Part shown: piece by piece, positions 18,428-37,452 of the stretch | How positions within the stretch are numbered: position 1 is the first letter of the stretch | How the letters are laid out: each line of letters opens with the position of its first letter | Assembly (NCBI GenBank): GCA_033762295.1 | Contig: JANRLW010000078.1 | Coordinates: 1 to 64,000 of the forward strand | Direction of reading: 5' to 3' | Origin: Capsulimonadales bacterium | Lineage (GTDB): Bacteria; Armatimonadota; Armatimonadia; Armatimonadales; Armatimonadaceae | DNA: 64,000 bases | Position numbers and translations under genes: made by a program | The notes under the pieces: model-generated | What the model was told of the DNA's origin: nothing | The model's database searches: none | What the model saw: only the letters and a program-made list of their open reading frames with translations

Positions 18428-18795
18428 ATGCAGCCCCGTGACCCGCTCGCCGGACGGATTCGTCTCTACCGTTTTGCCCTGATCCTTGGAATCGCCGTTT
18501 CGCTGCTGCTGCGGCGTTCTGCTACGAACGTGGTCTGCGGATTCGCCAGCTGGAAGCGGAACTTCAACACTCCTCCGCCCGTGTCCGCCTGGCCGAACGG
18601 TTTCGCCGGGAACTGGATCGGCAAAAGAGCGAAATGGACGCCGAAGCGAGGATGCGCCTGCAGATGATACGCCAGGCCACCCTCTCGGAGATGCGCGCCC
18701 GCGACATGCAGATTCAAGCGATGCAGGCGGCGCGGGAGGCTGAAATCCGTCTCCGGCAGGCGGAACAGCGTCAGGAACGCCAGTCGGGCCGCTGA
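18428..18795 (+). pseudogene. Frameshifted TM + coiled-coil protein (pseudogene or sequencing error)
   Basis: RBS GAAAGGA and MQPRDP...LILGIAVSLLL continue in another frame as AAFCYERGLRIRQLEAEL...QERQSGR*; span is 368 nt, one base short of in-frame. Confidence 0.7.
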
Positions 18796-18800
18796 CCCGG

Positions 18801-19373: not shown

Positions 19374-19377
19374 CGGA

Positions 19378-20211: not shown

Positions 20212-20281
20212 GATTTCTTCCTTTTGTAGACCACTTGTACGAACATTGGCTTCAGTACCGCCATACCATTCACTAACGCAA

Positions 20282-21043
20282 CTAAACTTTCGCGTTCCAG
20301 CGGACGGCAACAGACTCGACGGCTTTCATAGTAACCTCGATCGAACTTACCGGATCAATGACCAACTCTAACTCGGGCTTACTATTGACAGAGCGTACCA
20401 AAGCAAGAACGTAACGGTCATTCAGCTCCCGAGCAACCGACCACTCTTTGTCCGTAAACGAAATCAGCCCATTTCTTTCGCTGACACCTTTTACTTCGAT
20501 AGCACGATATTCCGTAGGATAGTTAGCACGAAAGTCAAACCCTATCCCGAACATACGTGTATCTTCAAGAGAGCTACCTTTGAACAAGGTGAGGTGGGGA
20601 AATCGCTCCATAAAGTGCTTTTCCGCCGCTACCCCCGTTTTGAGCCGGTTGGCGTATGCGTTATTTTCGGATTCGGATACACTTTGGTCCTTAGGAATCG
20701 CGGCAATCGGGCTTGTGTAAACGGCAACCTCTTTTGCTTCACCATCCAGAACCGTTTTTACGATTTCAAACATTGCAGATTCACTCAGGCTGTCGAATGC
20801 CTGCATGACGATCATACGAGAACGGATTACCGGGCGTTGATACCAACCAACGCGTATGACCGAACAAAACGGATCAAACTCATCCCGCATATTCTTAATT
20901 GTCGCAGGTTTAACTCTCAATAAATCGCCGATTTTCTGAAATGCTTCCTTAAAAGTATTGAATCCTAACGCACGATAGCCTTTACGGTCAAACCGTGAGA
21001 GAAAGTAGGCGACAATTAAGGCACGTCTGTGGTCTTCATCCAT
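20282..21043 (-). CDS. DUF3883 (NO VEIN C-terminal, PD-(D/E)xK) nuclease-like protein, low GC
   Basis: G..AE..F, GFDF, AIEVKG, FTDKEW, YVLALV; N-terminal IKNMRDEFDP..GW domain; visibly AT-richer than flanks. Confidence 0.75.
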   Translation of the reverse strand: MDEDHRRALIVAYFLSRFDRKGYRALGFNTFKEAFQKIGDLLRVKPATIKNMRDEFDPFCSVIRVGWYQRPVIRSRMIVMQAFDSLSESAMFEIVKTVLDGEAKEVAVYTSPIAAIPKDQSVSESENNAYANRLKTGVAAEKHFMERFPHLTLFKGSSLEDTRMFGIGFDFRANYPTEYRAIEVKGVSERNGLISFTDKEWSVARELNDRYVLALVRSVNSKPELELVIDPVSSIEVTMKAVESVAVRWNAKV

Positions 21044-21080
21044 CGGCGACCCGGAAACAGGGACATTTTTTTCTTCCTGA

Positions 21081-21893
21081 TTACTCAAATTCGTACTCAC
21101 CTTGCGTGGCGGCGCGTTCATAAGCCATCCGCGGAATCTGCGTGGCGAGCTTGCCCCCGCTGATGTCGATCATCGTACCGGTGATATATCCCGCCAGGTC
21201 CGACGAGAGGAAGCAGATCAGATTCGCCACCTCCTTCGCCTCCTGCCACCGGCGCAACGTCAGCGTGTCCAGAAGGCGCGACTGCGTTTCCGGCGCGCGT
21301 TCGGTAAAGTGGTTCATCTCGGTCGGAATCATACCGGGGGAGTAGCAGTTGACCGTGATGTTCCAGGGACCGACCTCCCCGGCCAGCACGCGCGTGAAGT
21401 AGTGGACGCCCGCCTTGGACGAGGCGTAGGCCGCGCTTCCGAGCGAGGGTACGATCGCGGCGAACGACGCGGCGTTCAGAATCCGCCCGCTCCTCTGCTG
21501 TTTCATCGTCGGGAGAACGGCCCGGCACATCAGGAAGGTGCCCTTCAGATTGATATCCTGGTTGGCGTCCCACGCCTCCTCGGTCAGTTCCTCGACGTAG
21601 GTGCCGACGGCGACCCCGGCATTATTGACCAGAATATCGATCCGACCGTAGGTGGAAACGACCTCCTCGACCAGAGAGGCGATGGCGGTGGCATCGCGCA
21701 CGTCCACCTTCCGGGCAAGTCCTTCCCAACCCTGTGCCGTAAACTCCGAAGTCAACGCGTCGAGTAAGTCCTGGCGCACATCGGTGGCGACCACTTTGAC
21801 GCCTTCACGGGCAAGCGTGGTCAGTATCTCATTTCCGATACCACGGCCCGCACCGGTAACAAGGGCGACTTTGCCCCGCAGATCGATTTCCAT
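21081..21893 (-). CDS. SDR family oxidoreductase
   Basis: TGAGRGIG, NNAG, YASSK. Confidence 0.95.
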   Translation of the reverse strand: MEIDLRGKVALVTGAGRGIGNEILTTLAREGVKVVATDVRQDLLDALTSEFTAQGWEGLARKVDVRDATAIASLVEEVVSTYGRIDILVNNAGVAVGTYVEELTEEAWDANQDINLKGTFLMCRAVLPTMKQQRSGRILNAASFAAIVPSLGSAAYASSKAGVHYFTRVLAGEVGPWNITVNCYSPGMIPTEMNHFTERAPETQSRLLDTLTLRRWQEAKEVANLICFLSSDLAGYITGTMIDISGGKLATQIPRMAYERAATQGEYEFE

Positions 21894-22114
21894 GATGCTC
21901 CACTTCCGACGGTTGATTTCGATGTTAGGTTAACCGTCTTCACCGAAATAACCTAACCTCCTGAACGTAACCTCATCAAACTTTCTATGAGACCCCGGAG
22001 ATAGGTAAAAGCCGCCCGGTTGGACTTAGTTGGAGATCCTCTGATGAGGCAACCTGAACCGAAAATTCCCCTTCCCGTTTAGCGATTTCTCGCGACGCCT
22101 CGATAGAGCAGGCA

Positions 22115-23264: not shown

Positions 23265-24884
23265 CTACTGATCCAATTTTTTGTCGACCACCGGCCGCTT
23301 ATCCCGATTGGCGAGTTCCACACCGGTCATGAAGATGGTCCGGGTAATCTTCATCAGTTTGGCGAAATCGATCCGGGCCACCTCGTCGCTCGGCCGATGG
23401 TAGTCGACATGGGTGCCATCGAACCAGAAGATGATCGGAACGCCGCGCCGCGCGTAGTTATAATGGTCGCTCCGGAAAAAGAAACGGTTGGGATCGGCCG
23501 GGTCGTCGTAACGGTAGTTGTAGGTGAGGTTCAGATAGCGCGCATTGACCTGTTCGGCCAGTTCACCCAGTTCCGTACTCATCCGCTTCGAGCCGATCAT
23601 ATAGACTTCGTTCGGACCGGAGAGATCGGCGTTACGCGGTTCCGCATCCCCTTCCGGTCGGCTGCGCCCGATCATATCGATGTTTAACTGCGTGATGATC
23701 GAGGTCAGCGGGACGGTCGGACGGCTGGTGAAGTAGTCCGATCCCCAGAGTCCCTTCTCCTCCCCGCAGTGCCAGACGAAAAGAATGCTCCGCCGGGGCT
23801 TTACCTTGCTTCGCCCGAACGCCTCGGCCATGGCGAGCATGGCGACCGTCCCCGAACCGTCGTCGTCCGCTCCGTTGTAGATGGCGTCCCCGCGCCCGTC
23901 CGGTCGACCGACGCCGATATGATCGTAGTGCGCCCCGATCACGACGTACTCGTTCCTCAGGGCCGGGTCCGACCCATCGACGAGAGCGACGACGTTTTGC
24001 GTGGTCGCCTCCTCCTGCTGGCGAACGACGTTCAGCGTCAGGGTCTTCCCGGCGGAGAGTTCGAACGATTCGGTCGGCTTGCTCCGCATCAGGACCGCGC
24101 CCTCGACCTTTTCTCCCGCGAACAGTTTTTCAACCAGCATCGGGGACGGAATGACGGAGAGCGGCCCGCCCGACGGCGTCCGCGTATTTTGCGAGCCGAC
24201 CGGGGTCAACTGGCCCCCGAACCGCTCCCAGCCGCTGCGGAATCCGGCCCAGGCATCCGGCGTCTCCGAGGACGGCAGGCTGAGGATGCCCGCCGCACCG
24301 CTTTTCTCCGCCACCAGACGCACATCCTGATAATCCTTGCCCCGCTCCATCCGTCTCAGGTCCTGAAACGGCACGTCGGCGGGCGAATTACCGGTCACAA
24401 CCAGAAACTTCCCGCGTACGTCGATCCCCTTATACGGATCGATGCCGCGCGACGGAATCACATACCCATGACTGACATAGACGAGCGACCCGGTCCCGCC
24501 GCCCGGCGTCCGGGCCAAGAAATCGTCGCCGTATTTGAGGGGTTCGTTACCGAGGGAGCCGCCCGATCGCTCCGGAACCATCCGTGCTCCCTGCAAAACG
24601 ATCTTCTGAAAATAGGTGCCGTCGCCACCCATCGGCTTCAGGCCCCACGATTTCACGCGTTCGGCGATGAACTTCGCGGCCATATCCAGTCCGGGGGACG
24701 GCGTGTCGCGTCCCCGAAGTTCGTCCGAAGCGATATAGGTCAGGTTCTCCCGCAGGGAATCCTCCCGAATATAGCTTTCCGCCAGCGCCTTTCCTTCGGC
24801 GAAATCACGCTGAGCGCGAGCGGGAGCGGCGGGCAGGAAGACGACGCCCAGAAGACCGACAGCGAACAGAGAGGCAGGTTTCAA
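23265..24884 (-). CDS. Secreted M28 family metallopeptidase with PA domain
   Basis: Signal peptide; GAHYDH, GADDDGSG, GEEKGLWGS, NIDMIG, RSDHYNY, DYH all intact. Confidence 0.93.
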   Translation of the reverse strand: MKPASLFAVGLLGVVFLPAAPARAQRDFAEGKALAESYIREDSLRENLTYIASDELRGRDTPSPGLDMAAKFIAERVKSWGLKPMGGDGTYFQKIVLQGARMVPERSGGSLGNEPLKYGDDFLARTPGGGTGSLVYVSHGYVIPSRGIDPYKGIDVRGKFLVVTGNSPADVPFQDLRRMERGKDYQDVRLVAEKSGAAGILSLPSSETPDAWAGFRSGWERFGGQLTPVGSQNTRTPSGGPLSVIPSPMLVEKLFAGEKVEGAVLMRSKPTESFELSAGKTLTLNVVRQQEEATTQNVVALVDGSDPALRNEYVVIGAHYDHIGVGRPDGRGDAIYNGADDDGSGTVAMLAMAEAFGRSKVKPRRSILFVWHCGEEKGLWGSDYFTSRPTVPLTSIITQLNIDMIGRSRPEGDAEPRNADLSGPNEVYMIGSKRMSTELGELAEQVNARYLNLTYNYRYDDPADPNRFFFRSDHYNYARRGVPIIFWFDGTHVDYHRPSDEVARIDFAKLMKITRTIFMTGVELANRDKRPVVDKKLDQ

Positions 24885-24959
24885 ACGGAGTTCCTCTTTC
24901 CAACGGCACGAGACCGCCGAAGCCTGACGCCTCGGCGGTCTTGGAGCGGAGTACGGTAA

Positions 24960-25742
24960 TCAGTGATGTCCGATGGAGCCGACGCTGATTTCGATGTCGG
25001 CTCGATTCTCGATCTTGTCCACCCGGCCATCACGAATCCAGACGATCCGGTCGGACACATCGACCATCTTGTGGTCGTGGGTCGCGGAGATGATCGTGAC
25101 ATTCTCCTTCTTGTTCAATTCACGAAGGAGGGAGATAATCGCGATCCCGGTTTTCTCATCCAGGTTTCCGGTCGGTTCGTCGGCGAGAACGATCGACGGC
25201 CGGTTGGCGAGGCTGCGGGCAATCGCGACACGTTGCTGCTGACCGCCGGATAGCTGGGACGGTTTGTTGTGCAGTCGATGCCCGAGTTCGACCATGTTCA
25301 GGAGTTCGATGGCGCGGTTCTGTCCCTCCTCGGCCGGCATACCGGCGAAGACGGTCGGCAGCATGACGTTCTCCAGCGCGGTCATGACCGGAATCAGGTT
25401 GAACGTCTGGAAGATGTAGCCGATCGTATGACAGCGGAGGAAGGCGAGTTCCTGCGCGTCCAGCTGCGCCATATCGACGTCGTTGATAAAGACCGTGCCG
25501 CTGTTGGGCTTGTCCAGTCCGCCGATCATGTTGAAGAAGGTGGACTTCCCCGAACCGGACGGACCCATGATCGAGATATACTCGCCCCGCTTGATATCGA
25601 GGGAGATCCCCTTCAGGGCATGGACCTCTTCGTTCCCCATCTTGAAGACCTTGGTGACGTCTTTGGCGCGGACCACATATTCGGTTCGGGAGCCGGACCC
25701 GCGTACGCTTTGCTCCGATGCTTCAGGTGCTTGTGTCGACAT
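24960..25742 (-). CDS. ABC transporter ATP-binding protein (LolD/MacB-type)
   Basis: GPSGSGKS, LSGGQQQR, LADEPTGNLD, ATHD; ATG at 25742. Confidence 0.95.
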   Translation of the reverse strand: MSTQAPEASEQSVRGSGSRTEYVVRAKDVTKVFKMGNEEVHALKGISLDIKRGEYISIMGPSGSGKSTFFNMIGGLDKPNSGTVFINDVDMAQLDAQELAFLRCHTIGYIFQTFNLIPVMTALENVMLPTVFAGMPAEEGQNRAIELLNMVELGHRLHNKPSQLSGGQQQRVAIARSLANRPSIVLADEPTGNLDEKTGIAIISLLRELNKKENVTIISATHDHKMVDVSDRIVWIRDGRVDKIENRADIEISVGSIGHH

Positions 25743-25753
25743 GGTTTTCTTTC

Positions 25754-26410
25754 TCAAACATCCGTACGTAGGGCGGCGGCGGGCGGGATATTGGCCGCCT
25801 GACGCGCGGGAATATAGGTCGCAATGGCGGTCAGCAAGGTGCCCAGGCCGACGCAGACCCAGAACGAACCGAACGGCAACCCGAACAGGTCGCCGATATC
25901 CAGGGAGCCGTGCCAGGTCGTGCCCGGCGGCGCGGTCTTCGGAACGCCGATCACGATTTTGGTCAGGATCATCAGCAACGTCCCGACCGCCCAGCCGAAT
26001 CCGGAAGCGATCGCGCCCATGGCGATGGCCTCGATCATAAAGATCTTGACGATAAACTGGCTCAGCGCGCCGAGACACTTCATGGTCCCGATCTCTCGGA
26101 ACCGCTCGGAGACGCTCATCAGCATCGAGTTGGTGATTCCGACGACGCAGACCGCGAGCGACAGCGCGACCAGCCAGTTCAGACGTGCCGCTTCCGACGG
26201 TTCGATATCCGCTCCCTTGACCGACTTATCCAGGAGGATCGACGCCAGAAAGGCGATACCGAGAAAGATACCGCCCGCCGTGATCAACGATCGCGCGAAC
26301 CGGATACGAACGCTCTTCCAGGCGAACTCCACCGCTTTGGAGAGCGGAAGGGCCACCTGTTTCTTGATGCCGCGATCGGCGGCGATATGGGCGAGATTAT
26401 TGGCGCTCAT
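25754..26410 (-). CDS. Small FtsX-like ABC permease
   Basis: GITNSMLMSVSERFREIGTMKCLGA, PARQAANIPPAAALR; almost no extracytoplasmic domain. Confidence 0.9.
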   Translation of the reverse strand: MSANNLAHIAADRGIKKQVALPLSKAVEFAWKSVRIRFARSLITAGGIFLGIAFLASILLDKSVKGADIEPSEAARLNWLVALSLAVCVVGITNSMLMSVSERFREIGTMKCLGALSQFIVKIFMIEAIAMGAIASGFGWAVGTLLMILTKIVIGVPKTAPPGTTWHGSLDIGDLFGLPFGSFWVCVGLGTLLTAIATYIPARQAANIPPAAALRTDV

Positions 26411-26844
26411 GCTTTTTTCGATTTCCGTGTCGCGGTTCCCGTCCCGCGCTTCAAGATCACCAGCTGACGCTGGGCGAGCATTCGCAGATACGCCGTTACC
26501 GACGTCTCCGCCTGCCGTCGATTCAATTTGTACCGCTCGACCACTTTCTTCGTGATCGCCTCGACGCTATTCGCGCCATCGCACATCTCCCAGACATCGG
26601 AACCGATCTCATCCAGTTCGAGTTTCCGATAGTCGGGCAGTTTGAAGATCCTCGCCACCGCGTTCCCGAACCGATCGCTGCGGCGCGGTATGCGCAGCAG
26701 GGCGACCGGCGGCGTATCGGGGCGCACCGCCTCCCGATCCCACGGCACTTTCGGATTGCGCAGCGGTTTCGACGCCAGCACTTCCGCCCGCGAGACCTTC
26801 GGTTTCCCCCCCGTGATCCGCTCTTTCAAAAACTGCACGATCAT
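26407..26844 (-). CDS. PqqD-family (RRE-like) protein
   Basis: LELDEIGSDVWEMCDGANSVEAI...YL..LAQRQLV; ATG at 26844 overlaps the upstream stop. Confidence 0.8.
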   Translation of the reverse strand: MIVQFLKERITGGKPKVSRAEVLASKPLRNPKVPWDREAVRPDTPPVALLRIPRRSDRFGNAVARIFKLPDYRKLELDEIGSDVWEMCDGANSVEAITKKVVERYKLNRRQAETSVTAYLRMLAQRQLVILKRGTGTATRKSKKA

Positions 26845-27830
26845 CGATGGCACCGTGTCCGCCGCGCGACCTCCGCCACGGAGTCGCCGGAGCGGAACGT
26901 CCGAAAACCTTCCACCAGATACACCTTGTTCGACTCCGCGCACTCCCAGGCGACCGCCGAGAAGCGGGTGGCCGGCACCTGAAACCGCGACAACTGCTGC
27001 GGAACCTGCATCCAGGGCAAACCGATCCCCAGTCCGCCGCTCAGAATCAGCGCCGGATGTCCCTGCGCCTCCCCTTCCGCCGCCGCGTAACGCGCCTGCG
27101 TCAGTTCCGCCTTCGAGTTGATGGTCAGCCAACGGTCCAGATACTCATCCCGACGCGAGATGTTCGCGATTGCCCACTGCTCCACCGACAGCCGTTCGGC
27201 CCGATGAGCGAAGGACAGTCGCAGATAGACATTCATCAACTGCTGTCCGACCAGCGTAAATGTCGCCGGAATCTCCGTATACAGGTCGTAGAGCGCCCAG
27301 ATACGCCATGCCGGGTCGTCGCCGTGGCACCGGAGCGACCCGAGTATTTCGTTCGCCACCGTGCCCAGACTGCCGCGCCCGGAAGGATGTCCGAGCACCT
27401 GCACGATCACCACCCGCTTGCAGGTCTGACAGAACCAGATCGCGCCGAACGCTTTCCGATCCCCGACCCACTGAAACCCCTTCACCGTCCGATCGTCCCG
27501 CAGTACCGACTTCGGCGGCGCGACCTCTTTCGTCGTCAGGTCGATCTTCTTTTTTCGTGCCGTCCGCCGAAGCGCGCCGAAATAGGTCTCCAGACGAGCG
27601 TCGAGTTCCGGCGCCTTTTTCGCCTTCGCCGGTTCCGTCACCCACTTGATTTCGGCTCCCTGCTCCTCGCTGTCGTCGACCCGCAGGTACCCGCTCGTCT
27701 CATCGCCGGAAAATCCGGTCAGGTCCCACTCCTCGGGCACGTCGAGCGTAAAGCCCTGCCAGCCGATCGGCTTGGGTTTCGATTTCGTGGCTGCGGGACG
27801 TCGTGCGTCCCTCTCCTTGACGGTGTTCAT
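26841..27830 (-). CDS. Conserved-looking hypothetical protein of the PqqD/transporter operon
   Basis: Translationally coupled; apparent internal duplication (WQGFTLDVPEEW..WFCQTCKRV / WALYDLYTEIPATF..WECAESNKV). Confidence 0.8.
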   Translation of the reverse strand: MNTVKERDARRPAATKSKPKPIGWQGFTLDVPEEWDLTGFSGDETSGYLRVDDSEEQGAEIKWVTEPAKAKKAPELDARLETYFGALRRTARKKKIDLTTKEVAPPKSVLRDDRTVKGFQWVGDRKAFGAIWFCQTCKRVVIVQVLGHPSGRGSLGTVANEILGSLRCHGDDPAWRIWALYDLYTEIPATFTLVGQQLMNVYLRLSFAHRAERLSVEQWAIANISRRDEYLDRWLTINSKAELTQARYAAAEGEAQGHPALILSGGLGIGLPWMQVPQQLSRFQVPATRFSAVAWECAESNKVYLVEGFRTFRSGDSVAEVARRTRCHR

Positions 27831-27850
27831 GATGCCCCGGACACGATACC

Positions 27851-29899
27851 CTAGAACGGCAGCGGCTGCACCGCTTTGGAAATCAGCGCGAGCGCGATCG
27901 CTCCCATACTGACCAGGCCCATCCCGCAGCCGAAACCGGCCAGAAGCACCGGGGTGTACTGCATCCAGCGCTCGGTTCCGAGGCGCTTTGCGAAGTAGAA
28001 CTTGCCGAAGCAGGCCCCGATAAAGGTCGGAATCGTGTAGTGCGGCATCGCGCCGGTACCGCCGGCCGCGCCGTAAAACGCCAGCATCGGCAGTTTCAGC
28101 AGGGACATGACGCCGTACAGGGCGAGCGTTCCCACCGCACTGATCCCGATCACGGTCGGCTTGATCGCATCCAGAACGAACGTCGAACCACCCGGCTTGT
28201 TGATCTGGTTCCAGATAGCCTGGTTCGCCGCGTTGATCGGCCAGATCTTCTGCGCGTACGGATACTGCGGCGACGGAATCGGCGACGTGTTCCAGATGAA
28301 CTGCCAGTAGAGCAGGCCGCCGATCAGGATGAGCGGGAACATCAGGATCTCGGCCTTGATGATCGACGTGAACTTGGTCCGCGTCAGTTCGACCTCGCGG
28401 AACTGCTGTGCCAGATAGCCATAATCGTGGAGCGGAATGGGGGCGTACCAGACGTCAATTTTCTGGTATCCCGACTTCATAATGGTCAGTTCCTTCAGGA
28501 ACGGGAAGTTGATTCCCTGCGAGGTCAGACCGAACATACGGGCGGCGACAAACGAGTTGATCGGGGTCCAGATCAGGCCGTACGTAATGAGCAGCCAGAG
28601 CGGGAACGTCGGCATCAGCCACTGGGTGAACCCGATATAGACGGCGGTCGCCAGCAGCCAGACGCCGATCGCAATCGGGAGCCAGCTCGGCTTGTCGCCC
28701 CGTCCTCGCGGCACTTCATTCCACGCCCCCCGGTTCTCCCGGTTCAGGCCGCGCGCCGCCTCGATCGATCCCTTGATGACGATGGTCAGACCGATCAACG
28801 CAATGGCGACCTGGATACCGACGCCGATCGACAGCCAGAGGTCGAGGTTGTTCGTGATACGGGTCGGGATCGTCCCCATGCCCGGATGCCACTGCGGCAA
28901 CAGGCCGTTATGGTAGAAGATCGGGTTCAGAACCAGATTGCAGATCAACGAGGAGACAAACGACCCGAGCACCATTTCAAACGGCAGGATGAACCCGACG
29001 AGCACGCTGCCGAGGTCGCCGGTAATCCCGATCGGCGCGGCGGGCAGGATGGTTTCGGTGGAGGGCATCAGGTCGACGAACGGGATCGGAATGATGGTCA
29101 GCGCGGTTCCGAACACGACCCCGGTAAAGACGGGAATCGCCGTGTAGATGGCGCCGAAGACCAGACCGATGGTCGTTCCGGTGGAAAAGATCTGCCAGCG
29201 CCAGGACTCCTCCTTCGACGAGGCTTCCGCCAGCGCGGTCGCACCGGACGCGGCGACGGACGCCAGCGGGAACGGCAGACGTTCGACGTCGGACGTGGCG
29301 CGGAACAGGATATACCCGGCCGGAATCCAGGAGACGCGTTCGAGCAACTGGCTGACGACCAGCACCCCCAGGGGCCCGAACCAGTCCTTGCTGAAGAAGG
29401 TGCGTTCGGCGATACCGGCGGCGTCCGGCTGCGGGGTCGCGAACCACGGCACCTCGCGCGCGATCGCCGCCGCCTGCGGACTCTGGACGAAATACTGGTT
29501 CCAGATCAGGAAGCCCAGCGGTCCTCCGGAGATGCCCCGGTCGCCGAGGGCGGCGGCGGACAGTCCGCCCGCCACGTAGAACAGCAGATAGAGTTCCTGT
29601 CGGGACAGAGGAAGGAACGAACGGCGGCAGATCTCGGCGAAGAGCACGATGGTGACCCACTGGGCGGCCGCGCCGAGTCCCTGCCCGGCCACCAGTCCCA
29701 GGTAGATCGCCCCCGGCATCATGATCAGAGCGACAAAGAACGCCCCGATCAGGGTCTTGATGGTAAACCCTTCCTGGTAAAGAGTCTCCTCGTCACCGGC
29801 GGTATCCTCGACGCGATCTCGGGCCGCGGCGATATCGTTGCCGGACCGCTCCATCGCCTCGCGACGCTCTTCTCTGCTTTCGTCAAATTCCTCGCTCAC
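27851..29899 (-). CDS. OPT-like multi-TM peptide transporter
   Basis: 682 aa with many TM helices; ERLPFP motif resembling the OPT-superfamily loop. Confidence 0.75.
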   Translation of the reverse strand: MSEEFDESREERREAMERSGNDIAAARDRVEDTAGDEETLYQEGFTIKTLIGAFFVALIMMPGAIYLGLVAGQGLGAAAQWVTIVLFAEICRRSFLPLSRQELYLLFYVAGGLSAAALGDRGISGGPLGFLIWNQYFVQSPQAAAIAREVPWFATPQPDAAGIAERTFFSKDWFGPLGVLVVSQLLERVSWIPAGYILFRATSDVERLPFPLASVAASGATALAEASSKEESWRWQIFSTGTTIGLVFGAIYTAIPVFTGVVFGTALTIIPIPFVDLMPSTETILPAAPIGITGDLGSVLVGFILPFEMVLGSFVSSLICNLVLNPIFYHNGLLPQWHPGMGTIPTRITNNLDLWLSIGVGIQVAIALIGLTIVIKGSIEAARGLNRENRGAWNEVPRGRGDKPSWLPIAIGVWLLATAVYIGFTQWLMPTFPLWLLITYGLIWTPINSFVAARMFGLTSQGINFPFLKELTIMKSGYQKIDVWYAPIPLHDYGYLAQQFREVELTRTKFTSIIKAEILMFPLILIGGLLYWQFIWNTSPIPSPQYPYAQKIWPINAANQAIWNQINKPGGSTFVLDAIKPTVIGISAVGTLALYGVMSLLKLPMLAFYGAAGGTGAMPHYTIPTFIGACFGKFYFAKRLGTERWMQYTPVLLAGFGCGMGLVSMGAIALALISKAVQPLPF

Positions 29900-29939
29900 A
29901 ACCGTGTCCTTTATCGTTACTAATGCCGGAAATTCATTG

Positions 29940-32900
29940 CTATGCGGGAACCGCGACCGCAGCCTCGGGACCGGTCTCCGGGCCGCCCTCCGTATGCGTT
30001 GCCTTGGCGGTCATCTCCTCCAGATACCGCTCCCGCTCGGTCGCGCTGAGCGTGCGCCAGATCAGGAACTGCTTGCGAAGGGTGTTCAGGAACCGCCGGT
30101 TGACCCGCTTCCAGTTGGAGACGTCGCCGGAAACGCGGGTGAGGGTCAGTTTCAGGTCGAAGACGTCCGGCAGGTCCGTCGGAACGGTCTCCAGCTTGAT
30201 ATGCTGGGAGACGCCCAGGTCGAACGGTGCCAGCCACGCTTTGCAGCCGATCCGGAACGCCTCGCCGTTGTCGGCGGTGAACGTCTCGCGATAGATGCCC
30301 TCGGTGATAAAGTCGCCGACCGAGTACCCTTCGTAGGAAGCGAACCATTCGGCCAGGAAGCCGTTGACGCCGACCGCCTGATCGCCGGTGACCGCGAACG
30401 GCAGACGGATGCGCCAGGTATCGCCCTCGGGATCGGCCACCTGCCACGAACGCTGGATCGCCGGGGTCGCGACCTCCGACGCCTTCTTCGCCGGCCAGAG
30501 CGTCGAAAGCAGAACGACCGCCACGATGATCAGCGTCGATAGAACCGCCGACAGCGACGAGAAGTTGAGCGACAGGCCGATCACGTTTCCGCTGACCTTC
30601 TCATACAGGAACAGTCCCTGAGCGACGGACTGACCCAGAATGTATCCGGAGACCGCGCCGATGATCGCGAAGACGAGCGCTTCGGCCATGAAGAGCGTCC
30701 CGATATGGGTCGGCGAGAGACCGATCGAGGAGAACGTATGGATCTCCTTGACGCGCTCGAAGACCGAGCCGAGCATCGTGTTGAGAACGATCAGGGCGGC
30801 GATCAGGATCGGGATGATGATCGTCTCGAACCCCTTGCTGCTGTTGGACCCGATCGAGGAGAAGCGGTCGATCTTGCCGTTCTGCGATGCGTAGAGGTTC
30901 ATGTCGACGCGCTTCATCAGGTTGTTCTTCAGGTCGGTGAGAACGCCGGCATTGTCCTCGCCGTAACCGATCGCCACCGAACGCAGGTCGCCGCCGAGGT
31001 TGACCATCGTCCGGTACGGGATGAAGAAGATGACATCCGGGTCGAGGTGCAGGTACTGCTGGAAGCCCGACGAGTTATCGGTCTTGCCCTGCCGCTGAAG
31101 CTGCGCCATCTGCACGAAGTCGACCGGGGTCAACGGCTCCTGGTCCAGGTCGGTGATCTGCTTGAAGCGATCCTGGTCGAGTATGCCGATTACCGTATAG
31201 TTTTGACCGGAGAACTGCACCTTCGCACTGCCGACATCGGCATCGGTGATGCGGAGCGAGTCGGCGATCTTGCGCGGCAGGATGATGTGCTGACGGTCGC
31301 CCGGTTCGAACCAGCGTCCGGCGACCAGCGCATCGGCGGCACGCGTCACCTGCGCTTCCTGCGGCGACAGCCCGACCGCGCCCTTCGCCCCGAACTCACG
31401 GTCGGCGCGTTTCAGGGTGAGGAACGTCTGCTCGCCCGGCTGGGTTCCGAGGAACCAGGCACGCGGGGCGACGGTTCGCACCTGCCCGAACTCGTCGTCC
31501 AGTTGCCGGTAGGCGACCTGCTGGAGAGAGTTCCAGTTCGGGTCGCGGAGCAGAATGCCGGCGTAACGCGGCGTCCCCGGCGCGGGTACCTGATTGAACC
31601 GCAGGTTCTGGACGATCGACGTGAACGCCAGCACGGTGAAGGTCAGCATGACCAGGGTGATACAGGTCAGCGTGGTACGCGCCTTACGCCGCCGCATGTT
31701 GGAAACGCCCAGAGCGAACGCCGCCACCGCGATACTGCCCGTTCCGGCGTCCTTGTCGTGCGTTCCCAGATTCTCCCGGGCCTGCTGTTTCAACTGCGCC
31801 TCGAACTTCTGCCAGACCAGGACGGTGACGAGCACCGACAGGGACAGCATGATGAACGACAGCAGGATGATGCCCGGGTTCAGCGAGATCTGGAACGCCG
31901 GATGGATGATGGCGAACACGATGAACACGCCGACGAAGATCAGGGCCGCCGCCAGCAGCTGGCGCTTCAGGTCGGAGAAGCCGAAGAACAGCCGCTCCAG
32001 GAAGTAGGCGAACGGAATCATCAGAGCCAGATAGAAGATGACTCCGTTGACCACGTCCTGCTGGGTCTTGGTAACGTTCGGATAGGCGCGGGACTCATAC
32101 CCCCAGGCGGCGCGCGACCAGGAGTCGAACGTCTCGTAATCGCGCGCGGCGAGAGCGACCTCCGCCTTCTTGATCGCCTCGGCGGCGTTGGCATGGAGTT
32201 CGATCACGCCCTCGTTCTTGATGTTGTTTTTGAGAAGACGCTTGATCCGGAAGTCGTCGAGCGCCCACATGTCCTTGGCGACTTTGAGGGCGGTGTGGAT
32301 GATCGAGGCGGAGCGGGACGAGTCCGTCGCGTTGGGGCCGGTCCCGGCGCCCATGACATACCCCTCGCCCTCCGGGTTCTTCTCGGTCGAGTTGATGAGC
32401 AGGAAGCGGGTCGCCGCCGGTCCCGCGCCCATCAGGATCTTGAACTGGCGCAGTTTGTTGGTCGATCCGGCGCCACCCCCACCCTGGCCTTCCCCCTGGG
32501 AAGCGGGAGAACCGGGGTTCTGATCGCCGTACTCATTGCCACGCCGGGCGAAGATCAGAGCGGCGTCCTCGACATAGGAGACGCCCGGTTCCGGCCGGGG
32601 AAGCGTGTAGCCGTACTGTCGCGGTTCGCCGTTCGAGACGCCGTCGAAGATGGTCAGTGTGGAAAGGGTGCGCAACGCCTGCTGGTCGACCAGATCGTAG
32701 ATGGCCGTGGCGACACAGGGGAAGACGACGACGGTCACGTCCTTGCGCCCGGTGGTGATACTGATATCGCTCGGATAGTCCGCGCCGGAGACCCCCTTGT
32801 CGGGCGCGAAATCGATGTCCCCGGTTTCGGGATCGAGATGGTACGCGCCGACCGAATGGTTGGTGTTATCGACGGTGCGGGTCGGGACGCCGACAAACTT

Positions 32901-34706
32901 GAAGTTGGTGGCGTTATCACTTTTGCCGTCGCCGTTGTTGACGTACTGCACCCAGTATCCGCGAACGCCGAGGAACGATTTCTGACCGGGGCGGGTTCCC
33001 GCGCCGGGGGTCAGGGAAGGATAAACGGCCAGGGCGTCCGGCACCGGGTCGTTCGGCACCAGTGACTTGCGCGGATTATACTCCCGGACGCGCCCGACGA
33101 CGGTGGCGAACCCGTTTCGCAGTCCCATCCGGGTCCACTGCGACGGCTTGTAAATCGGTACGGCCTTTCCCGGCGGCGAGTTGGGATCGTTGGGATCGTT
33201 GAGATAATGCTGAAACAGACAGAGGAACGTCTGCATCTGCTGGGAAAGGTTGGCGATATTCACCCGCTCGAAGGTATCGAACGGCGTATCGACCAGGTTA
33301 CGGGCGTCGTCGATGGTGGCGAAGGTCACGCCGTAGCCGCCCGCCATGCCGACCGCCTCGGAGTCGAATGCCGGCTTGCCGGGGATAAAGTTGCGCCAGG
33401 ATTTTCCATCGACCGGGTTGACGCCGTCCTGAAACCGCTTCTTCGCCTCATAGCCGAAGACCTCGGCGACCTTGTCGTTGTTTTCGCGGGCGGCGCGGGC
33501 GATGTCCGAGAAATCTTTTTGCGTATCTTCGCGAACGTCGAAGTACCAGCCTTTGTAGAACACCCCCATCGTGTTGCTCTGCGTGGCGAAGTCCAGGCCG
33601 ACCCAGAGGTAGATCGGGTCCTTGATCTCCTTTTCCGGGCCGAAGACCAGGCCGAAGAGTCCGGTATGCAGAAGTTTTTCGAAGGGACCGGGCACCTGCC
33701 ACTCATCGATATGGTTGTTCACATATTCGCGGACGCCCTGCAATCCGAGAAAGTGACCGGAGGTGGCGAGGAACCAGATGGTCCGTTCGTGGCCGATCTT
33801 CTTGAACGTGCGCGCGGTCTGCAGAAGTCCCGCCAGGCCGGTGGCGCTCTCGGCCGAGGGGGCCAGAGCGGGTACGATCGACATGCCGTCGTAGTACGCC
33901 TGAACGACGATCACCTGTCGGGCGATCTTGGGGTCCTTGCTCTGTCCGGGCAACACCCCGATAAAGTTTTTGGACGTCACCTTCTCCCATTTCATGTTCG
34001 CGGTGAGATGGGCCATGACGTTCTTGCGGCCGAGAGCCAGAGCCTGGAGAGCGGCGGCGTCGGAGCGTTTGATGAAGAAGCGCGGGATGGAGATGGGAAC
34101 CCCGATGAACTTGGCTTCGGCCTCGCCGCGCATGGTGCGATCCGGTTCGATGAAGATAACCGCCTTCGCGCCGAGTCGGGGAGCGTTCATCCATTCGAGA
34201 CCGCAGTTAAAGTCGAGCAGGACGACGCTGCCGGTGATGTCCTTGCCGTTGAACGACGAGAGGGAGCCATCCCCGGCGTAGATCAGCGGACCGTCCAGAC
34301 CCTCGGGCGGCAGTTGCGAGGTGCGGATGACATTCGGCCAGAGCGAGTAGAGCGTGTACTGCCGGCCGTTGGCGGAAAGGGTCGCGCCGCGGTCGACCGG
34401 AGTCGTGGCTTCGAACTCCTCGGTTTTAACGTTCGCCGCCCCGAAAAGCTCGTCAAACTGCGCTTTGACATACTCGGCGGCCTTGCGTTCGCCCGGATAT
34501 CCGACGACCCGGGAACCACCGGTCGCCAGAGTCCGGACGGTCGCAGCCATCGCATCGGCATCGATGGTGGCGGAGATATCTCGGTATTTCGCGGCCAGAG
34601 TCTCATCCACTGCCGGTCGCGCGACCGTCGCCAGCGTGAGCAGACAGATCAGGGACAGAAAGCAACCGCGAAGCGTTGGAATCATCATCTTTGTTCGTTT
34701 TCGCAT
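29940..34706 (-). CDS. Giant FtsX-like permease fused to a PA/M28-like extracellular domain
   Basis: 1588 aa; signal peptide, PA domain, degenerate M28 motifs, central TM block, C-terminal VLNTMLGSVFERVKEI FtsX motif. Confidence 0.88.
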   Translation of the reverse strand: MRKRTKMMIPTLRGCFLSLICLLTLATVARPAVDETLAAKYRDISATIDADAMAATVRTLATGGSRVVGYPGERKAAEYVKAQFDELFGAANVKTEEFEATTPVDRGATLSANGRQYTLYSLWPNVIRTSQLPPEGLDGPLIYAGDGSLSSFNGKDITGSVVLLDFNCGLEWMNAPRLGAKAVIFIEPDRTMRGEAEAKFIGVPISIPRFFIKRSDAAALQALALGRKNVMAHLTANMKWEKVTSKNFIGVLPGQSKDPKIARQVIVVQAYYDGMSIVPALAPSAESATGLAGLLQTARTFKKIGHERTIWFLATSGHFLGLQGVREYVNNHIDEWQVPGPFEKLLHTGLFGLVFGPEKEIKDPIYLWVGLDFATQSNTMGVFYKGWYFDVREDTQKDFSDIARAARENNDKVAEVFGYEAKKRFQDGVNPVDGKSWRNFIPGKPAFDSEAVGMAGGYGVTFATIDDARNLVDTPFDTFERVNIANLSQQMQTFLCLFQHYLNDPNDPNSPPGKAVPIYKPSQWTRMGLRNGFATVVGRVREYNPRKSLVPNDPVPDALAVYPSLTPGAGTRPGQKSFLGVRGYWVQYVNNGDGKSDNATNFKFVGVPTRTVDNTNHSVGAYHLDPETGDIDFAPDKGVSGADYPSDISITTGRKDVTVVVFPCVATAIYDLVDQQALRTLSTLTIFDGVSNGEPRQYGYTLPRPEPGVSYVEDAALIFARRGNEYGDQNPGSPASQGEGQGGGGAGSTNKLRQFKILMGAGPAATRFLLINSTEKNPEGEGYVMGAGTGPNATDSSRSASIIHTALKVAKDMWALDDFRIKRLLKNNIKNEGVIELHANAAEAIKKAEVALAARDYETFDSWSRAAWGYESRAYPNVTKTQQDVVNGVIFYLALMIPFAYFLERLFFGFSDLKRQLLAAALIFVGVFIVFAIIHPAFQISLNPGIILLSFIMLSLSVLVTVLVWQKFEAQLKQQARENLGTHDKDAGTGSIAVAAFALGVSNMRRRKARTTLTCITLVMLTFTVLAFTSIVQNLRFNQVPAPGTPRYAGILLRDPNWNSLQQVAYRQLDDEFGQVRTVAPRAWFLGTQPGEQTFLTLKRADREFGAKGAVGLSPQEAQVTRAADALVAGRWFEPGDRQHIILPRKIADSLRITDADVGSAKVQFSGQNYTVIGILDQDRFKQITDLDQEPLTPVDFVQMAQLQRQGKTDNSSGFQQYLHLDPDVIFFIPYRTMVNLGGDLRSVAIGYGEDNAGVLTDLKNNLMKRVDMNLYASQNGKIDRFSSIGSNSSKGFETIIIPILIAALIVLNTMLGSVFERVKEIHTFSSIGLSPTHIGTLFMAEALVFAIIGAVSGYILGQSVAQGLFLYEKVSGNVIGLSLNFSSLSAVLSTLIIVAVVLLSTLWPAKKASEVATPAIQRSWQVADPEGDTWRIRLPFAVTGDQAVGVNGFLAEWFASYEGYSVGDFITEGIYRETFTADNGEAFRIGCKAWLAPFDLGVSQHIKLETVPTDLPDVFDLKLTLTRVSGDVSNWKRVNRRFLNTLRKQFLIWRTLSATERERYLEEMTAKATHTEGGPETGPEAAVAVPA

Positions 34707-37020: not shown

Positions 37021-37452
37021 TCACAGGGGACGGGTCATTCGGCGATGCGGAATGCCGGCGTCGTCGAACTCCGGCCCCTCGGCGACAAAACCGAGTTTCT
37101 CGTAGAACGGGAGGGCGTAGGTCTGGGCGTCGAGCGCCGCGACGGTGAAACGACGCTCACGGGCGATCTCCAGGATATGGCGCATCAGTATCGCACCGAA
37201 CCCTTTGCCCCGGAACGGCTTCAGGATCGCCACCCGCCCGATCTTTGCGATCCCGTTCCCCCGATCCGTGATCCGCGCCGTGCCGAAGGCGGTATCGCCG
37301 TCCTCCAGCAGCAGATGGATCGCCTCGGCGTCGTACTCGTCCGGTTCGAGTTCGGCAGGGACGTTCTGTTCGTCCACGAAGACCGCAAAGCGGATCGCCA
37401 TCGCTTTCGCCCGGTCGGCATCGGTTTCACAGAGGCGGATCATCATGGACAC
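37021..37452 (-). CDS. GNAT acetyltransferase (ElaA/YjcF-like)
   Basis: IRFAVFVDEQ, KIGRVA, RGKGFG, FYEKLGF, AGIPH. Confidence 0.92.
   Translation of the reverse strand: MSMMIRLCETDADRAKAMAIRFAVFVDEQNVPAELEPDEYDAEAIHLLLEDGDTAFGTARITDRGNGIAKIGRVAILKPFRGKGFGAILMRHILEIARERRFTVAALDAQTYALPFYEKLGFVAEGPEFDDAGIPHRRMTRPL

Follow-up and report, generated by a model that had tools for sequence, protein, structure and literature searches.

A conserved six-gene membrane system of Armatimonadota that joins a type VII ABC system to a predicted OPT-fold carrier and a PqqD-family protein

Introduction

The described type VII ABC systems include MacAB-TolC, LolCDE-LolA, FtsEX-EnvC, and YbbAP-TesA. The OPT-superfamily members characterised to date are proton-coupled importers, and known OPT carriers, such as barley Yellow Stripe HvYS1 (PDB 7wst/7wsr), work alone. 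RRE domains of the PqqD family occur in PqqD and in lasso-peptide B1 chaperones, e.g., TbiB1; a peptide-binding RRE in the cytoplasm is more usually associated with substrates that are recognised prior to their modification or export. An alpha/beta fold is shared by the PsbP/Mog1/DUF1795-like proteins, among them CyanoP, Mog1, the T6SS immunity proteins TplEi/Tli4 and Tsi3, DcrB, and SciW, and PA-domain M28 aminopeptidases are represented by Aneurinibacillus 2ek8 and B. subtilis YwaD 6hc6, with non-catalytic relatives. Here, we describe a locus that encodes relatives of these families side by side. Literature searches found no description of this six-gene system, nor any paper assigning it another function.

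Organization and conservation of the gene cluster

The cluster lies in a window of 64,000 nucleotides, the whole stretch of DNA analysed here (positions 1 to 64,000 of contig JANRLW010000078.1, assembly GCA_033762295.1, Capsulimonadales bacterium). It comprises the following seven open reading frames.

G1, 29940..34706, minus strand, 1588 aa; PA/M28-like head with MacB_PCD and FtsX domains
G2, 27851..29899, minus strand, 682 aa; polytopic membrane protein, predicted OPT/Yellow-Stripe fold
G3, 26841..27830, minus strand, 329 aa; cytoplasmic, tandem PsbP/Mog1-like domains
G4, 26407..26844, minus strand, 145 aa; PqqD-family RRE protein
G5, 25754..26410, minus strand, 218 aa; minimal FtsX permease
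G6, 24960..25739, minus strand, about 259 aa; LolD/MacB/FtsE-type ABC ATPase
G7, 23265..24884, minus strand, 539 aa; secreted M28 aminopeptidase, a lineage-specific neighbour outside the core

The ORF check bore out the frames, strand, coordinates, and inventory of the original prediction, which had described seven co-oriented, tightly coupled genes. The intergenic gaps from G1 to G7 are, in order, 40, 20, -4, -4, 14, and 75 nt; the G3 stop codon is overlapped by the G4 ATG (ATGA), and the G4/G5 junction is also an ATGA overlap. The proposed seven-gene operon had to be shortened to a core of six, with an intact M28 peptidase downstream of G6 in only 5 of the 58 loci that have at least 2 kb of downstream DNA. 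This core unit, G1-G6, is a real and unstudied membrane system that is conserved phylum-wide.

G1-G6 were colinear on one strand in 65 of 80 related Armatimonadota loci. Thirteen of the remaining 15 loci are cut by contig ends, and the other two have no G1 in the 2.3 kb that remain before the contig ends. All 65 loci holding the six core genes were colinear, with zero rearranged, and the arrangement is therefore far beyond chance. No flanking gene family was common to more than 11 loci, and the flanks of the window were not kept in related loci, except for one LacI-like match in one locus.

Among 301 sampled genomes of the phylum, the G2 profile (threshold E <= 1e-80) matched in 249 and the G3 profile in 237. 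Their tallies were equal in most families (11/13, 20/23, 2/6, 1/6, 0/3, and 12/34 in f1, f2, f6, f7, f9, and f11, respectively), and the two censuses agreed in the first 20 genomes listed as lacking a match. By these profiles, about a fifth of the sampled genomes are without the system, indicating that it is not essential to all members of the phylum. The same six genes were also found, at 26-65% identity and in changed order (G5 first), on a 42% G+C metagenome contig that carries a DUF6785/DUF6784 paralogue as well and whose G3 is labelled Elusimicrobiota by the data source. Gene order was thus conserved within the phylum, in line with the original prediction, and a second lineage has the same set of genes.

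A type VII ABC motor with a remodelled outer head

It is well supported that G1, G5, and G6 make up a type VII ABC system, with G1 and G5 as the FtsX/MacB-type permease halves and G6 as the ATPase. G1 matched the Pfam families Peptidase_M28 weakly (E 1.7e-4, residues 247-332), MacB_PCD (2e-8), and FtsX (2.9e-14), and its sequence matches in the PDB were 2ek8/6hc6 (E about 1e-12), MacB 5lil, YtrF, LolF, and LolC. Its parts are as follows.

Residues 7-34: signal/anchor (hydropathy)
About 43-336: PA and M28-like outer head (aligned to PA-domain aminopeptidases)
After the head to about 880: outer region with no assigned family
About 884-968: three TM segments (hydropathy)
1010-1035: FtsX TM1
1011-1207: MacB periplasmic core domain
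1289-1407: FtsX TM2-4
170 aa at the C terminus: cytoplasmic tail domain of no known family

The tail and the region 335-1000 had no Pfam match at E <= 1, and an Atlas search with the tail gave no usable match. G5 (Pfam FtsX, E 2.9e-17) has four TM segments, a short loop as its sole outer part, and no MacB_PCD, as judged from hydropathy and Pfam. G6 matched ABC_tran (7.6e-35), and its translation contains the Walker A, signature, Walker B, and H-loop motifs. The best NCBIfam matches of the ABC parts were LolC/E/D, far below cut-off; for G6, LolD TIGR02211 scored 240 bits against a cut-off of 307.75, so that G6 is not a LolD equivalog.

The locus thus shares with type VII ABC systems the FtsX four-helix domain, a MacB periplasmic core domain placed in G1 between TM1 and TM2, and an ATPase of the LolD/MacB/FtsE type; G1 and G5 probably pair as a heterodimer of two dissimilar permeases, like LolC and LolE. 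In contrast to those systems, G1 has four times the length and carries a PA/M28-like head, a further three TM segments, and a cytoplasmic tail domain, and G5 is almost without an outer domain. The cluster encodes no membrane-fusion protein, TolC, LolA, or EnvC-like partner; its constant partners are instead the OPT-fold carrier, the RRE protein, and the PsbP-like protein, and no report of such partners was found in those parts of the type VII ABC literature that were covered.

The outer head has the PA and M28 architecture of the aminopeptidases. Unlike in these enzymes, a zinc-binding His is replaced by Tyr/Phe and the Glu-Glu pair by Gly/Ala-His in 21 of 21 orthologues, whereas G7 keeps the motifs. 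Because the replacement residues are themselves conserved, the site appears remodelled rather than decayed, and the head, judged from this sequence pattern, very probably binds a substrate rather than cutting it.

Predicted OPT/Yellow-Stripe fold of G2

G2 matched no Pfam family even at E <= 10 and no NCBIfam model, and it is present in a single copy in this genome. In a Foldseek search, the AF2 model of G2 matched barley Yellow Stripe 1 over its whole length (7wst_A, E 2.8e-10, TM 0.59/0.65; TM range 0.59-0.67, 682 alignment columns) at 14% identity; the next-best unrelated match had an E of 0.027 and a TM of about 0.1. G2 itself has no PF03169 match, and its sequence link to the family is a remote one through the DUF6785/DUF6784 paralogues (hhalign probability 77%, E 2.1e-5, 366 columns). 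Automatic names of Atlas clusters for G2 read 'peptide transporter family', and 15-33% of the cluster members carry PF03169. The structural model thus supports well the assignment of G2 as an OPT/Yellow-Stripe-fold carrier, and the 'OPT-like' label originally given to G2 was confirmed for the fold but not by Pfam and NCBIfam families. The model is of middling confidence (pLDDT 67.3, pTM 0.68), and a Pfam OPT match is lacking.

In contrast to the known OPT carriers, G2 is always encoded with an ABC motor. The DUF6785 paralogues elsewhere in this genome mostly lie beside genes for sugar-type enzymes, which indicates that the carrier family at large is not specific for peptides. A search for fusions among longer relatives of G2 was negative, which is weak evidence.

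The cytoplasmic proteins G3 and G4

G3 has no hydrophobic segment or signal by hydropathy and matched no Pfam family at E <= 10, with only a sub-threshold match to DUF6487 (0.021). Its AF2 model (pLDDT 92.0, pTM 0.85) matched TplEi/Tli4, PsbP, and Mog1 in Foldseek. Residues 17-169 aligned with CyanoP 2xb3 (Z 14.4, rmsd 2.8, 141 aligned) and residues 174-328 with Tsi3 4luq (Z 10.5) in VIA-align, and SciW 6xrb gave a Z of 9.4. Both domains therefore share the PsbP/Mog1-like fold, in a two-domain arrangement like that of TplEi/Tli4, whereas G3 differs from these proteins in being cytoplasmic, in 7-14% sequence identity, and in family-specific Cys/His motifs. The conserved residues are C134, C137, and H169 in domain 1 and W295-x-C297, N301, and the C-terminal C327-H328 in domain 2.

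G4 matched Pfam PqqD (PF05402) above cut-off (E 6.5e-12 on the 145-aa form, 46 bits against 23.4), the only such match in the genome. Its profile matched the solved RRE proteins 9x90_B (1.3e-8), TbiB1 5v1u (1.7e-7), and PqqD 3g2b (1e-6) across the beta3-alpha1-alpha2-alpha3 region, in agreement with the RRE originally proposed; the NCBIfam lasso, PQQ, and GeoRSP models were all below cut-off. In contrast to the described family members, G4 has its own conserved N-terminal extension of about 60 aa and a basic C-terminal tail, has no RiPP enzyme or precursor nearby, and has the PsbP-like G3 as its predicted partner.

The predicted G3-G4 complex reached ipSAE values of 0.69, 0.66, and 0.68, against 0.00 for the best of three controls; among reference pairs, 116 of 157 solved complexes attained this mark, as against 2 of 215 mismatched pairs, counts that apply only roughly here because we used our own alignments. 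Contacts agreed between runs to at least 60%, with a partner pLDDT of 74-76, and the ATGA overlap of the two genes fits such a pairing. In the predicted interface, W219-A222 and 299-302 of G3, including the invariant N301, face the conserved YKLNRREAE loop of G4. The models thus predict, with good support, a cytoplasmic G3-G4 heterodimer formed through the most conserved residues, and G3 was the only partner of G4 that they supported. G3, first listed as hypothetical, can now be described as a tandem PsbP/Mog1-like protein and predicted G4 binder.

Neighbouring genes

G7 (Pfam Peptidase_M28, 2.3e-39) keeps the HxD, DDDG, EE, and D metal motifs when aligned to 1cp7 and has a signal-like segment at residues 1-24 by hydropathy. 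In locus L045, the cluster has a prolyl oligopeptidase gene within it or beside it. Two different peptidases have been recruited separately, M28 in five loci and prolyl oligopeptidase in this one, which fits import and gives a lead towards a peptide substrate. Some Chthonomonadales loci carry a gene for a LolA-like (DUF2092)/thioredoxin-like protein between G1 and G2, which speaks for a hydrophobic or envelope cargo and against a peptide.

The cluster contains no RiPP precursor, YcaO, or lasso cyclase gene. A radical SAM gene, whose absence had been claimed, does lie at 37452-38147, 2.7 kb upstream of the cluster; it is QueE-like and not linked to the cluster in related loci, and the view that this is not a standard RiPP cluster stands. 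The cluster is likewise neither FtsEX nor LolCDE. A canonical FtsE/FtsX pair with an FtsX_ECD domain (C76) and at least six other FtsX-family genes are found elsewhere in the genome.

Possible function of the system

We tentatively favour, at rather less than an even chance, a reading in which G1-G6 form one membrane machine, with an ABC motor and a peptide-binding head feeding an OPT-fold importer, together with G3-G4. G1 and G5 would assemble as a heterodimer that holds two G6 subunits, like LolC/LolE/LolD2, and ATP-driven movement would be relayed to the outer head of G1 by mechanotransmission. The head would capture a peptide-like substrate outside the cytoplasmic membrane and present or release it to G2, which would move it inward on the proton gradient, like known OPT members. 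At the cytoplasmic face, the G3-G4 pair would receive the cargo or, more cautiously, might gate the motor through binding a peptide segment. This import and hand-off model, whose outline was put forward in the original prediction, is plausible, and a peptide is our best guess for the substrate. The inward direction, drawn only by analogy from known OPT members, would fit, as the OPT-superfamily members characterised so far are, to our knowledge, importers. Characterised MacB-type systems expel or extract substrates, and we know of none that feeds an importer. This expulsion, the typical roles of RREs, the LolA-like insertion, and the non-peptide contexts of the DUF6785 genes are points against the import model, as is the middling confidence of the G2 model.

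Alternatively, the cluster could be an export or secretion machine, in which the RRE of G4 and a chaperone-like G3 recognise a ribosomal peptide or protein segment encoded elsewhere, G2 lets it out, the MacB-type motor expels or positions it, and the head holds it. RRE domains are known as leader-peptide binders acting before modification or export, and G4 matches lasso-peptide chaperones; folds like that of G3 include secretion chaperones and immunity proteins (SciW, TplEi, Tsi3), and characterised MacB-type pumps expel substrates. We nevertheless regard export as unlikely: the 40- and 20-nt gaps are too small for a precursor-like ORF, no flanking gene is conserved, modifying enzymes are absent, the known direction of OPT transport is inward, and the single-copy, phylum-wide occurrence resembles a housekeeping function, unlike most secreted-peptide loci.

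An envelope-remodelling regulator seems a similarly improbable reading. Like FtsEX-EnvC, the ABC part would transport nothing and would switch the head, which would control or scaffold an external hydrolase or bind the wall or a lipoprotein; G2 would recycle fragments, and G3-G4 would couple the system to the cytoplasmic state. Some type VII ABC systems (FtsEX-EnvC, YbbAP-TesA) act purely as mechanotransducers, the head is strongly conserved though catalytically remodelled, several Chthonomonadales operons carry the LolA-like/thioredoxin-like insertion, and the sub-cut-off NCBIfam matches are to LolC/E/D. However, the domain searches revealed neither a peptidoglycan-binding nor a hydrolase-activator domain in G1, and the other FtsX-family genes of the genome provide other candidates for the known envelope roles.

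A cryptic RiPP cluster, in which G4 would serve an unrecognised modifying enzyme (e.g., G3 through its Cys/His residues) and the transporters would export the product, is very unlikely. The RRE of G4 is genuine and the conserved Cys/His residues of G3 adjoin the predicted G4 interface (C297, N301, C327-H328), but the PsbP/Mog1 fold is one for binding and its matches include no known enzyme, both a precursor gene and a known RiPP enzyme are missing, the nearby radical SAM gene is unlinked, and natural-product clusters are not usually conserved as a single copy across nearly a whole phylum. That chance or co-regulation alone has brought together an ABC exporter, a carrier unrelated to it, and an orphan PqqD gene, each with its own function, is hardly credible in view of the unbroken colinearity, the joint occurrence of the set in another lineage, the matching presence-absence patterns of G2 and G3, the predicted G3-G4 binding, and the in-frame fusions.

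In-frame junctions speak for physical coupling of the parts. No stop codon separates the G1 and G2 frames in 1 of 74 loci (L002), and L099 shows the same junction; misreading of a single stop codon during sequencing could account for this lone fusion. In 3 of 69 loci, G5 runs on into G6 as one continuous frame.

Gene content and conservation of the cluster

Seven open reading frames (ORFs) are located on the minus strand at positions 23265–34706, with intergenic gaps of 40, 20, −4, −4, 14, and 75 nt. The inventory of seven genes in the original prediction was correct, as judged from the ORF coordinates and from Pfam and NCBIfam searches, which gave the following assignments.

29940–34706, minus strand: G1, 1588 aa; weak Peptidase_M28 match (residues 247–332), MacB_PCD (1011–1207), and FtsX (1297–1410)
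27851–29899, minus strand: G2, 682 aa; no family match even at E ≤ 10
26841–27830, minus strand: G3, 329 aa; no family above cut-off
26407–26844, minus strand: G4, 145 aa; PqqD (PF05402)
25754–26410, minus strand: G5, 218 aa; FtsX as its sole family
24960–25739, minus strand: G6, approximately 259 aa; ABC ATPase, with LolD, MacB, and YbbA as top NCBIfam matches, each under its equivalog cut-off
23265–24884, minus strand: G7, 539 aa; strong Peptidase_M28 match (Pfam)

Of 276 relatives retrieved from the species-genome collection with a profile of G2 relatives, the 80 best loci were analyzed; among these best 80 of 276, every locus bearing a taxon name was from Armatimonadota. When the seven window proteins were used for tblastn, G1–G6 were all present and colinear on one strand in 65 of the 80 loci, and contig ends truncated 13 more. 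G1 was absent from L024 and L042 solely within the 2.3 kb preceding a contig end. The locus of Chthonomonas calidirosea (L076) contains all six genes. The conservation of gene order, which had been proposed as a check, was borne out in these Armatimonadota loci, and the gene set also recurs, reordered, in a distant contig (L081); the neighborhoods covered were those of Armatimonadota genomes and this one other contig. G7 had been regarded as an operon member; it was found downstream of G6 in just 5 of the 58 loci in which the downstream DNA extended for 2 kb or more, these five being from close relatives, and is thus a lineage-specific neighbor, not a core part.

The genes flanking the cluster in the window, including those for a LacI-type regulator, a 345-aa protein of unknown function, a QueE-like radical SAM protein, and an APH-type kinase, were not found in the 80 related loci except for one LacI-like match. 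No conserved additional flanking component was found in these loci, the largest flank family occurring in only 11 of them. Promoter and terminator scans gave counts no better than those for shuffled sequences; one promoter-like site was located upstream of G1 (34858–34829).

Lineage-specific insertions occur within the operon in related loci. Many Chthonomonadales loci contain proteins of about 275 aa with four transmembrane (TM) segments between G2 and G3; the C-terminal part of this insert looks like a DUF1559-type tail on an unscored reading of the sequence, and the possibility that it is a G3 paralogue was rejected. The inserts between G1 and G2 encode a DUF2092 (LolA-like)/thioredoxin-like protein, a prolyl oligopeptidase (L045), a DNA methylase, and a DUF4190 protein. 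The first of these, at L050:1804–2964, L056:8621–9820, and similar Chthonomonadales loci, is a predicted periplasmic fusion of DUF2092 with an AhpC/TSA/thioredoxin-like domain.

Gene fusions and a gene split were also observed. G1 and G2 share one open frame without a stop codon in 1 of 74 loci (L002:5219–12043), and the same junction was found in a relative from the window's family (L099:3022–10488). The joint G1–G2 frame in this family measures 2488 aa, and the two junctions were counted as one observation. The fusion may be natural or may reflect a sequencing error at a single stop codon, and it fits the predicted topology, in which both the tail of G1 and the N-terminus of G2 would be cytoplasmic. 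In 3 of 69 loci (L029, L062, and L072), G5 runs into G6 in the same frame without a stop codon, in the order permease-then-ATPase, which is the reverse of the domain order of MacB. In L029 (8029–9675), two genes encode the outer head and the FtsX part of G1, the FtsX protein measuring 548 aa, and the match patterns of L031, L039, and L048 indicate the same arrangement.

Each part of this constant six-gene combination is from, or resembles, a known family, and the whole is a type VII ABC system whose partners are without precedent. Among the papers listed by searches of sources other than subscription journals, as judged from titles and the beginnings of abstracts, none described such a combination, and none joined type VII ABC transporters or mechanotransmission with the OPT family.

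Distribution across genomes

The distribution was analyzed in 301 genomes of the phylum that were at least 80% complete. Matches to the G3 profile were found in 237 of the 301 genomes, 199 of 252 high-quality genomes, and 123 of 163 genera, and the G2 profile matched 249 of 301 genomes at E ≤ 1e-80. The tallies for G2 and G3 were equal in most families (f1, 11/13; f2, 20/23; f6, 2/6; f7, 1/6; f9, 0/3; f11, 12/34) and diverged in f18 (0 versus 6/10), f5, f22, and f24, and the first 20 genomes listed without a match were identical for the two profiles. This co-occurrence is a pattern, not a statistic, because the sampled genomes are kin. About four-fifths of the genomes sampled from this little-studied phylum keep the system.

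G1, G2, G3, and G4 each occur once in the window's genome, with G4 as the sole PqqD match. No second copy of the system was found there: none of the 13 places encoding DUF6785 proteins has an FtsX or PqqD neighbor.

Both unannotated families are large. G2-type proteins have more than 1,600 relatives, and the G3 family comprises 1695 representative clusters at E ≤ 1e-3, a number that falls to 281 at the stricter limit of E ≤ 1e-30. Ten tail-end members of the G3 family were looked up, and their sources included Armatimonadota (2), Elusimicrobiota (1), and WS1 (one member); the cluster of the WS1-labelled member also bears Armatimonadota labels (candidate division WS1). A word-indexed search for distant G3 relatives with the G3 alignment gave 10 matches with no taxonomic signal, and a single-protein metagenome search for a distant G3-type locus gave one locus.

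The contig encoding the Elusimicrobiota-labelled G3, L081, has a G+C content of 42%, versus about 62% in the window. Its gene order is G5, a DUF6785/DUF6784 protein, G1, G2, G3, G4, and G6, and the identities to the window proteins are 34% for G1, 44% for G2, 26% for G3, 30% for G4, and 65% for G6. The set is kept at identities of 26–65% and in altered order, which indicates that it survives deep divergence and reordering. The L081 cluster is located between trpG-like (151–723) and trpD/trpC/trpF-like (12109–14668) genes, as if inserted in a tryptophan operon.

Components of a type VII ABC system

G1 and G5 each contain an FtsX-type four-TM permease domain (PF02687; 2.9e-14 and 2.9e-17, respectively), with PDB matches to MacB, YtrF, LolF, and LolC; in G1, these align to the C-terminal part. 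The large extracytoplasmic domain between TM1 and TM2 was detected in G1 as MacB_PCD (1011–1207; 2e-8), and this match places the domain outside the membrane. G5 has, by hydropathy, four TM segments with a loop of about 20 residues and no large outer domain. G6 matched ABC_tran at 7.6e-35, and its translation contains all the ATPase motifs; with LolD, MacB, and YbbA as its top NCBIfam matches, it is a cognate MacB/LolD/FtsE-type ATPase with intact motifs.

The hydropathy profile of G1 indicated a signal or anchor at the N-terminus, then an outer region extending to about residue 880, and three TM segments followed by the FtsX module. From the order of these segments, the 170-aa C-terminal tail is probably cytoplasmic. 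The tail gave no Pfam match and no usable match in the Atlas; the idea that it is a third PsbP-like domain was rejected, as it has no likeness to G3 (hhalign probability, 0.2%).

Residues 43–336 of G1 align to the PA-domain M28 aminopeptidases 2ek8 and 6hc6 (E about 1e-12). In all 21 orthologues aligned with G7, Tyr or Phe stands in place of the first zinc-binding His, and Gly/Ala-His in place of the Glu-Glu pair; the same replacements were seen in the alignment of G1 to 2ek8. Over the region compared, namely the first His and the Glu-Glu region with the last two ligands lying outside the alignment, the head does not have the zinc ligands and catalytic Glu of an active M28 metallopeptidase. 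The replacement residues (YYD, AES, and GHF) are themselves conserved in G1. G7 retains HYDH, DDDG, EE, and NIDM in its alignment to 1cp7, the last His lying beyond the alignment shown. The invariable replacement, the conservation of the replacing residues, and the retention of the motifs in G7 suggest that the G1 head is a remodelled binding module that is very probably non-catalytic. In L027, L052, L058, and L065 (Chthonomonadales/Capsulimonadaceae), the head carries a hydrophobic TM-like insert after the GHF motif, which, if real, would alter the topology of the head.

Assignment to characterized systems was not supported. FtsEX was rejected because G1 and G5 scored 17–26 bits against NCBIfam FtsX cut-offs of 225–255. 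LolCDE was rejected with lolCE (TIGR02212) scores of 17.7 bits for G1 and 37.5 bits for G5 against a cut-off of 362, and G6 was rejected as a LolD equivalog with 240 bits against 307.75 (TIGR02211). Eleven FtsX-family matches were found in the window's genome, where the sole PF18075 match (contig C76, 44895–45146) lies beside an FtsE-like ATPase gene. This canonical ftsE/ftsX pair (C76, 43988–45587; FtsX_ECD present) is 2.4 kb from one DUF6785 paralogue, probably by coincidence.

G2 and its carrier family

G2 had no Pfam or NCBIfam match, and its profile gave no PDB sequence match at E ≤ 1, so that sequence-family searches gave no match to the OPT superfamily (PF03169/TC 2.A.67). The AF2 model of G2 (pLDDT 67.3, pTM 0.68) matched barley Yellow Stripe 1 over the full length in Foldseek (7wst_A, E 2.8e-10; 7wsr_A, 6.2e-10; TM 0.59–0.67), and the next matches had E ≥ 0.027 and a TM of about 0.1 (0.11). 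The predicted structure thus has the OPT/YSL fold, and leads from the Atlas also pointed to an OPT-type protein.

A remote link was detected by hhalign between the G2 profile and eight DUF6785 proteins (probability 76.9%, E 2.1e-5, 366 columns). G2 itself had no Pfam match to the DUF6785/DUF6784 families (PF20581 + PF20580), and a true DUF6785/DUF6784 gene is present in the cluster version of L081. No fused long form of G2 was found in a search whose crowded word index makes this weak evidence. Nothing on DUF6785/DUF6784 was found in the literature searched.

The window's genome contains 13 further DUF6785/DUF6784 membrane-protein genes (L086–L098), located on contigs C16, C76, C2 (two places), C29, C26, C39, C31, C13, C92, C77, C70, and C69, and two of these paralogues bear N-terminal extensions of about 350 aa. 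Their neighbors are mostly sugar-type enzymes (xylose-isomerase-like TIM barrel, GFO/IDH/MocA, enolase superfamily, and DUF2961), along with LacI regulators, APH-type kinases, and one prolyl oligopeptidase. The set looks like an expanded, unstudied solute-carrier family. Since none of its places adjoins FtsX or PqqD genes and its neighbors are mostly sugar-type enzymes, G2 is a distinct single-copy branch of this family.

G3, G4, and their predicted pairing

The model of G3 (pLDDT 92.0, pTM 0.85) consists of two PsbP/Mog1-like domains, with the alpha/beta sandwich fold and Foldseek probabilities of 1.00 to PsbP and TplEi. Domain 1 (17–170) matched CyanoP 2xb3 (Z 14.4, rmsd 2.8, 141 aligned residues) and also Mog1, TplEi/Tli4, LpqN, DcrB, and SciW. 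Domain 2 (174–329) matched Tsi3 4luq (Z 10.5, rmsd 3.4, 111 aligned residues) and the C-terminal domain of MucB/RseB. The PsbP/Mog1-like fold is a binding fold. The conserved Cys and His residues of G3 (C134, C137, and H169; W295-x-C297, N301, and C327-H328, the second motif being kept in distant members too) suggest one or two metal sites.

The identity of G4 as an RRE/PqqD protein with the winged-helix RRE region, for which a check had been named, was upheld by its PF05402 score (46.1 bits versus a cut-off of 23.4) and by matches of the G4 profile to solved RREs (9x90_B, 1.3e-8; 5v1u, 1.7e-7; 3g2b, 1e-6). G4 is extended at its N-terminus by a conserved segment and ends in a basic tail.

In the window, G3 and G4 overlap as ATGA; the two genes adjoin in all 71 loci holding both, with a median spacing of 21 nt. 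Complex prediction for the pair gave ipSAE values of 0.69, 0.66, and 0.68, whereas none of three controls exceeded 0.00. In the calibration set, 116 of 157 solved complexes but just 2 of 215 mismatched pairs attained this ipSAE mark; the calibration applies roughly here, as the prediction was run with alignments made for this analysis. The runs agreed in at least 60% of contacts, with a partner pLDDT of 74–76. The predicted interface consists of invariant G3 residues (W219–A222 and E299–K302) and the conserved YKLNRREAE loop of G4. We know of no solved complex of an RRE with a PsbP-like protein, so mere reproduction of a known structure by the predictor is unlikely. The model supports putative binding between G3 and G4. 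These results assign a predicted fold and a putative partner to two large unannotated families, those of G2 and G3.

Possible function of the six-gene unit

In the proposed mechanism, a G1/G5 heterodimer with two copies of G6 would form a type VII ABC motor, and its ATP-driven motion would reach the remodelled PA/M28 head of G1. The head would capture a peptide-like substrate outside the membrane and hand it to G2, which would perform proton-driven uptake as an OPT-fold carrier, and the G3–G4 pair would take the cargo or gate the motor. The OPT members known so far import their substrates, and recruitment of a peptidase beside the cluster has occurred in separate lineages with two different enzymes; for these reasons uptake of a peptide-like cargo is the favored mode, which we regard as quite possible but tentative. 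Against it, known MacB-type systems push outward, and a cytoplasmic-side RRE is more typical of export or modification, so that the unit might instead export its cargo. Genes of the wider carrier family are located beside those for sugar enzymes, and the LolA-like insert hints at a hydrophobic cargo, both of which also speak against the favored mode. We consider export unlikely, and a role of the unit as an envelope regulator similarly improbable. A RiPP cluster was rejected: as originally predicted, G1–G7 include no precursor and no modifying enzyme such as an rSAM/SPASM, YcaO, or lasso cyclase/protease, no gap is long enough to contain a precursor gene, and the upstream radical SAM protein is QueE-like and absent from all 80 loci. 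The gene for the latter (37452–38147, minus strand) encodes a small protein resembling 7-carboxy-7-deazaguanine synthase, with all models under cut-off, and is unrelated to the cluster.

The complete proposal is a hybrid transporter that is near-core in Armatimonadota and would also occur in other phyla. In this proposal, a type VII ABC mechanotransducer whose head is a remodelled aminopeptidase would be physically joined to an OPT-fold carrier driven by protons and would supply it with peptide-like cargo captured by the head, and an RRE–PsbP-like heterodimer would either receive this cargo or gate the motor. As a whole, this remains a doubtful though possible reading. If true, it would provide the first RRE outside RiPP or cofactor biosynthesis and the first MacB-type motor serving uptake. 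An uptake machine of this kind would depart from the rule under which MacB-type motors act only outward, would show coupling of a primary and a secondary transporter, and would extend the roles of RRE domains, which have hitherto been linked to RiPP and PQQ biosynthesis, to membrane transport or the control of transport. Few type VII ABC systems exist, and every one characterized to date (efflux, lipoprotein sorting, cell division, and lipid hydrolysis) has revealed a new envelope process.

Other features of the window

The G+C content falls to 54% at 20001–22000, a stretch that includes a NOV_C-domain protein (20282–21121), and a PcfJ-like protein is encoded further upstream (16405–18072). 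The region 16405–22000 is possibly a small foreign island.
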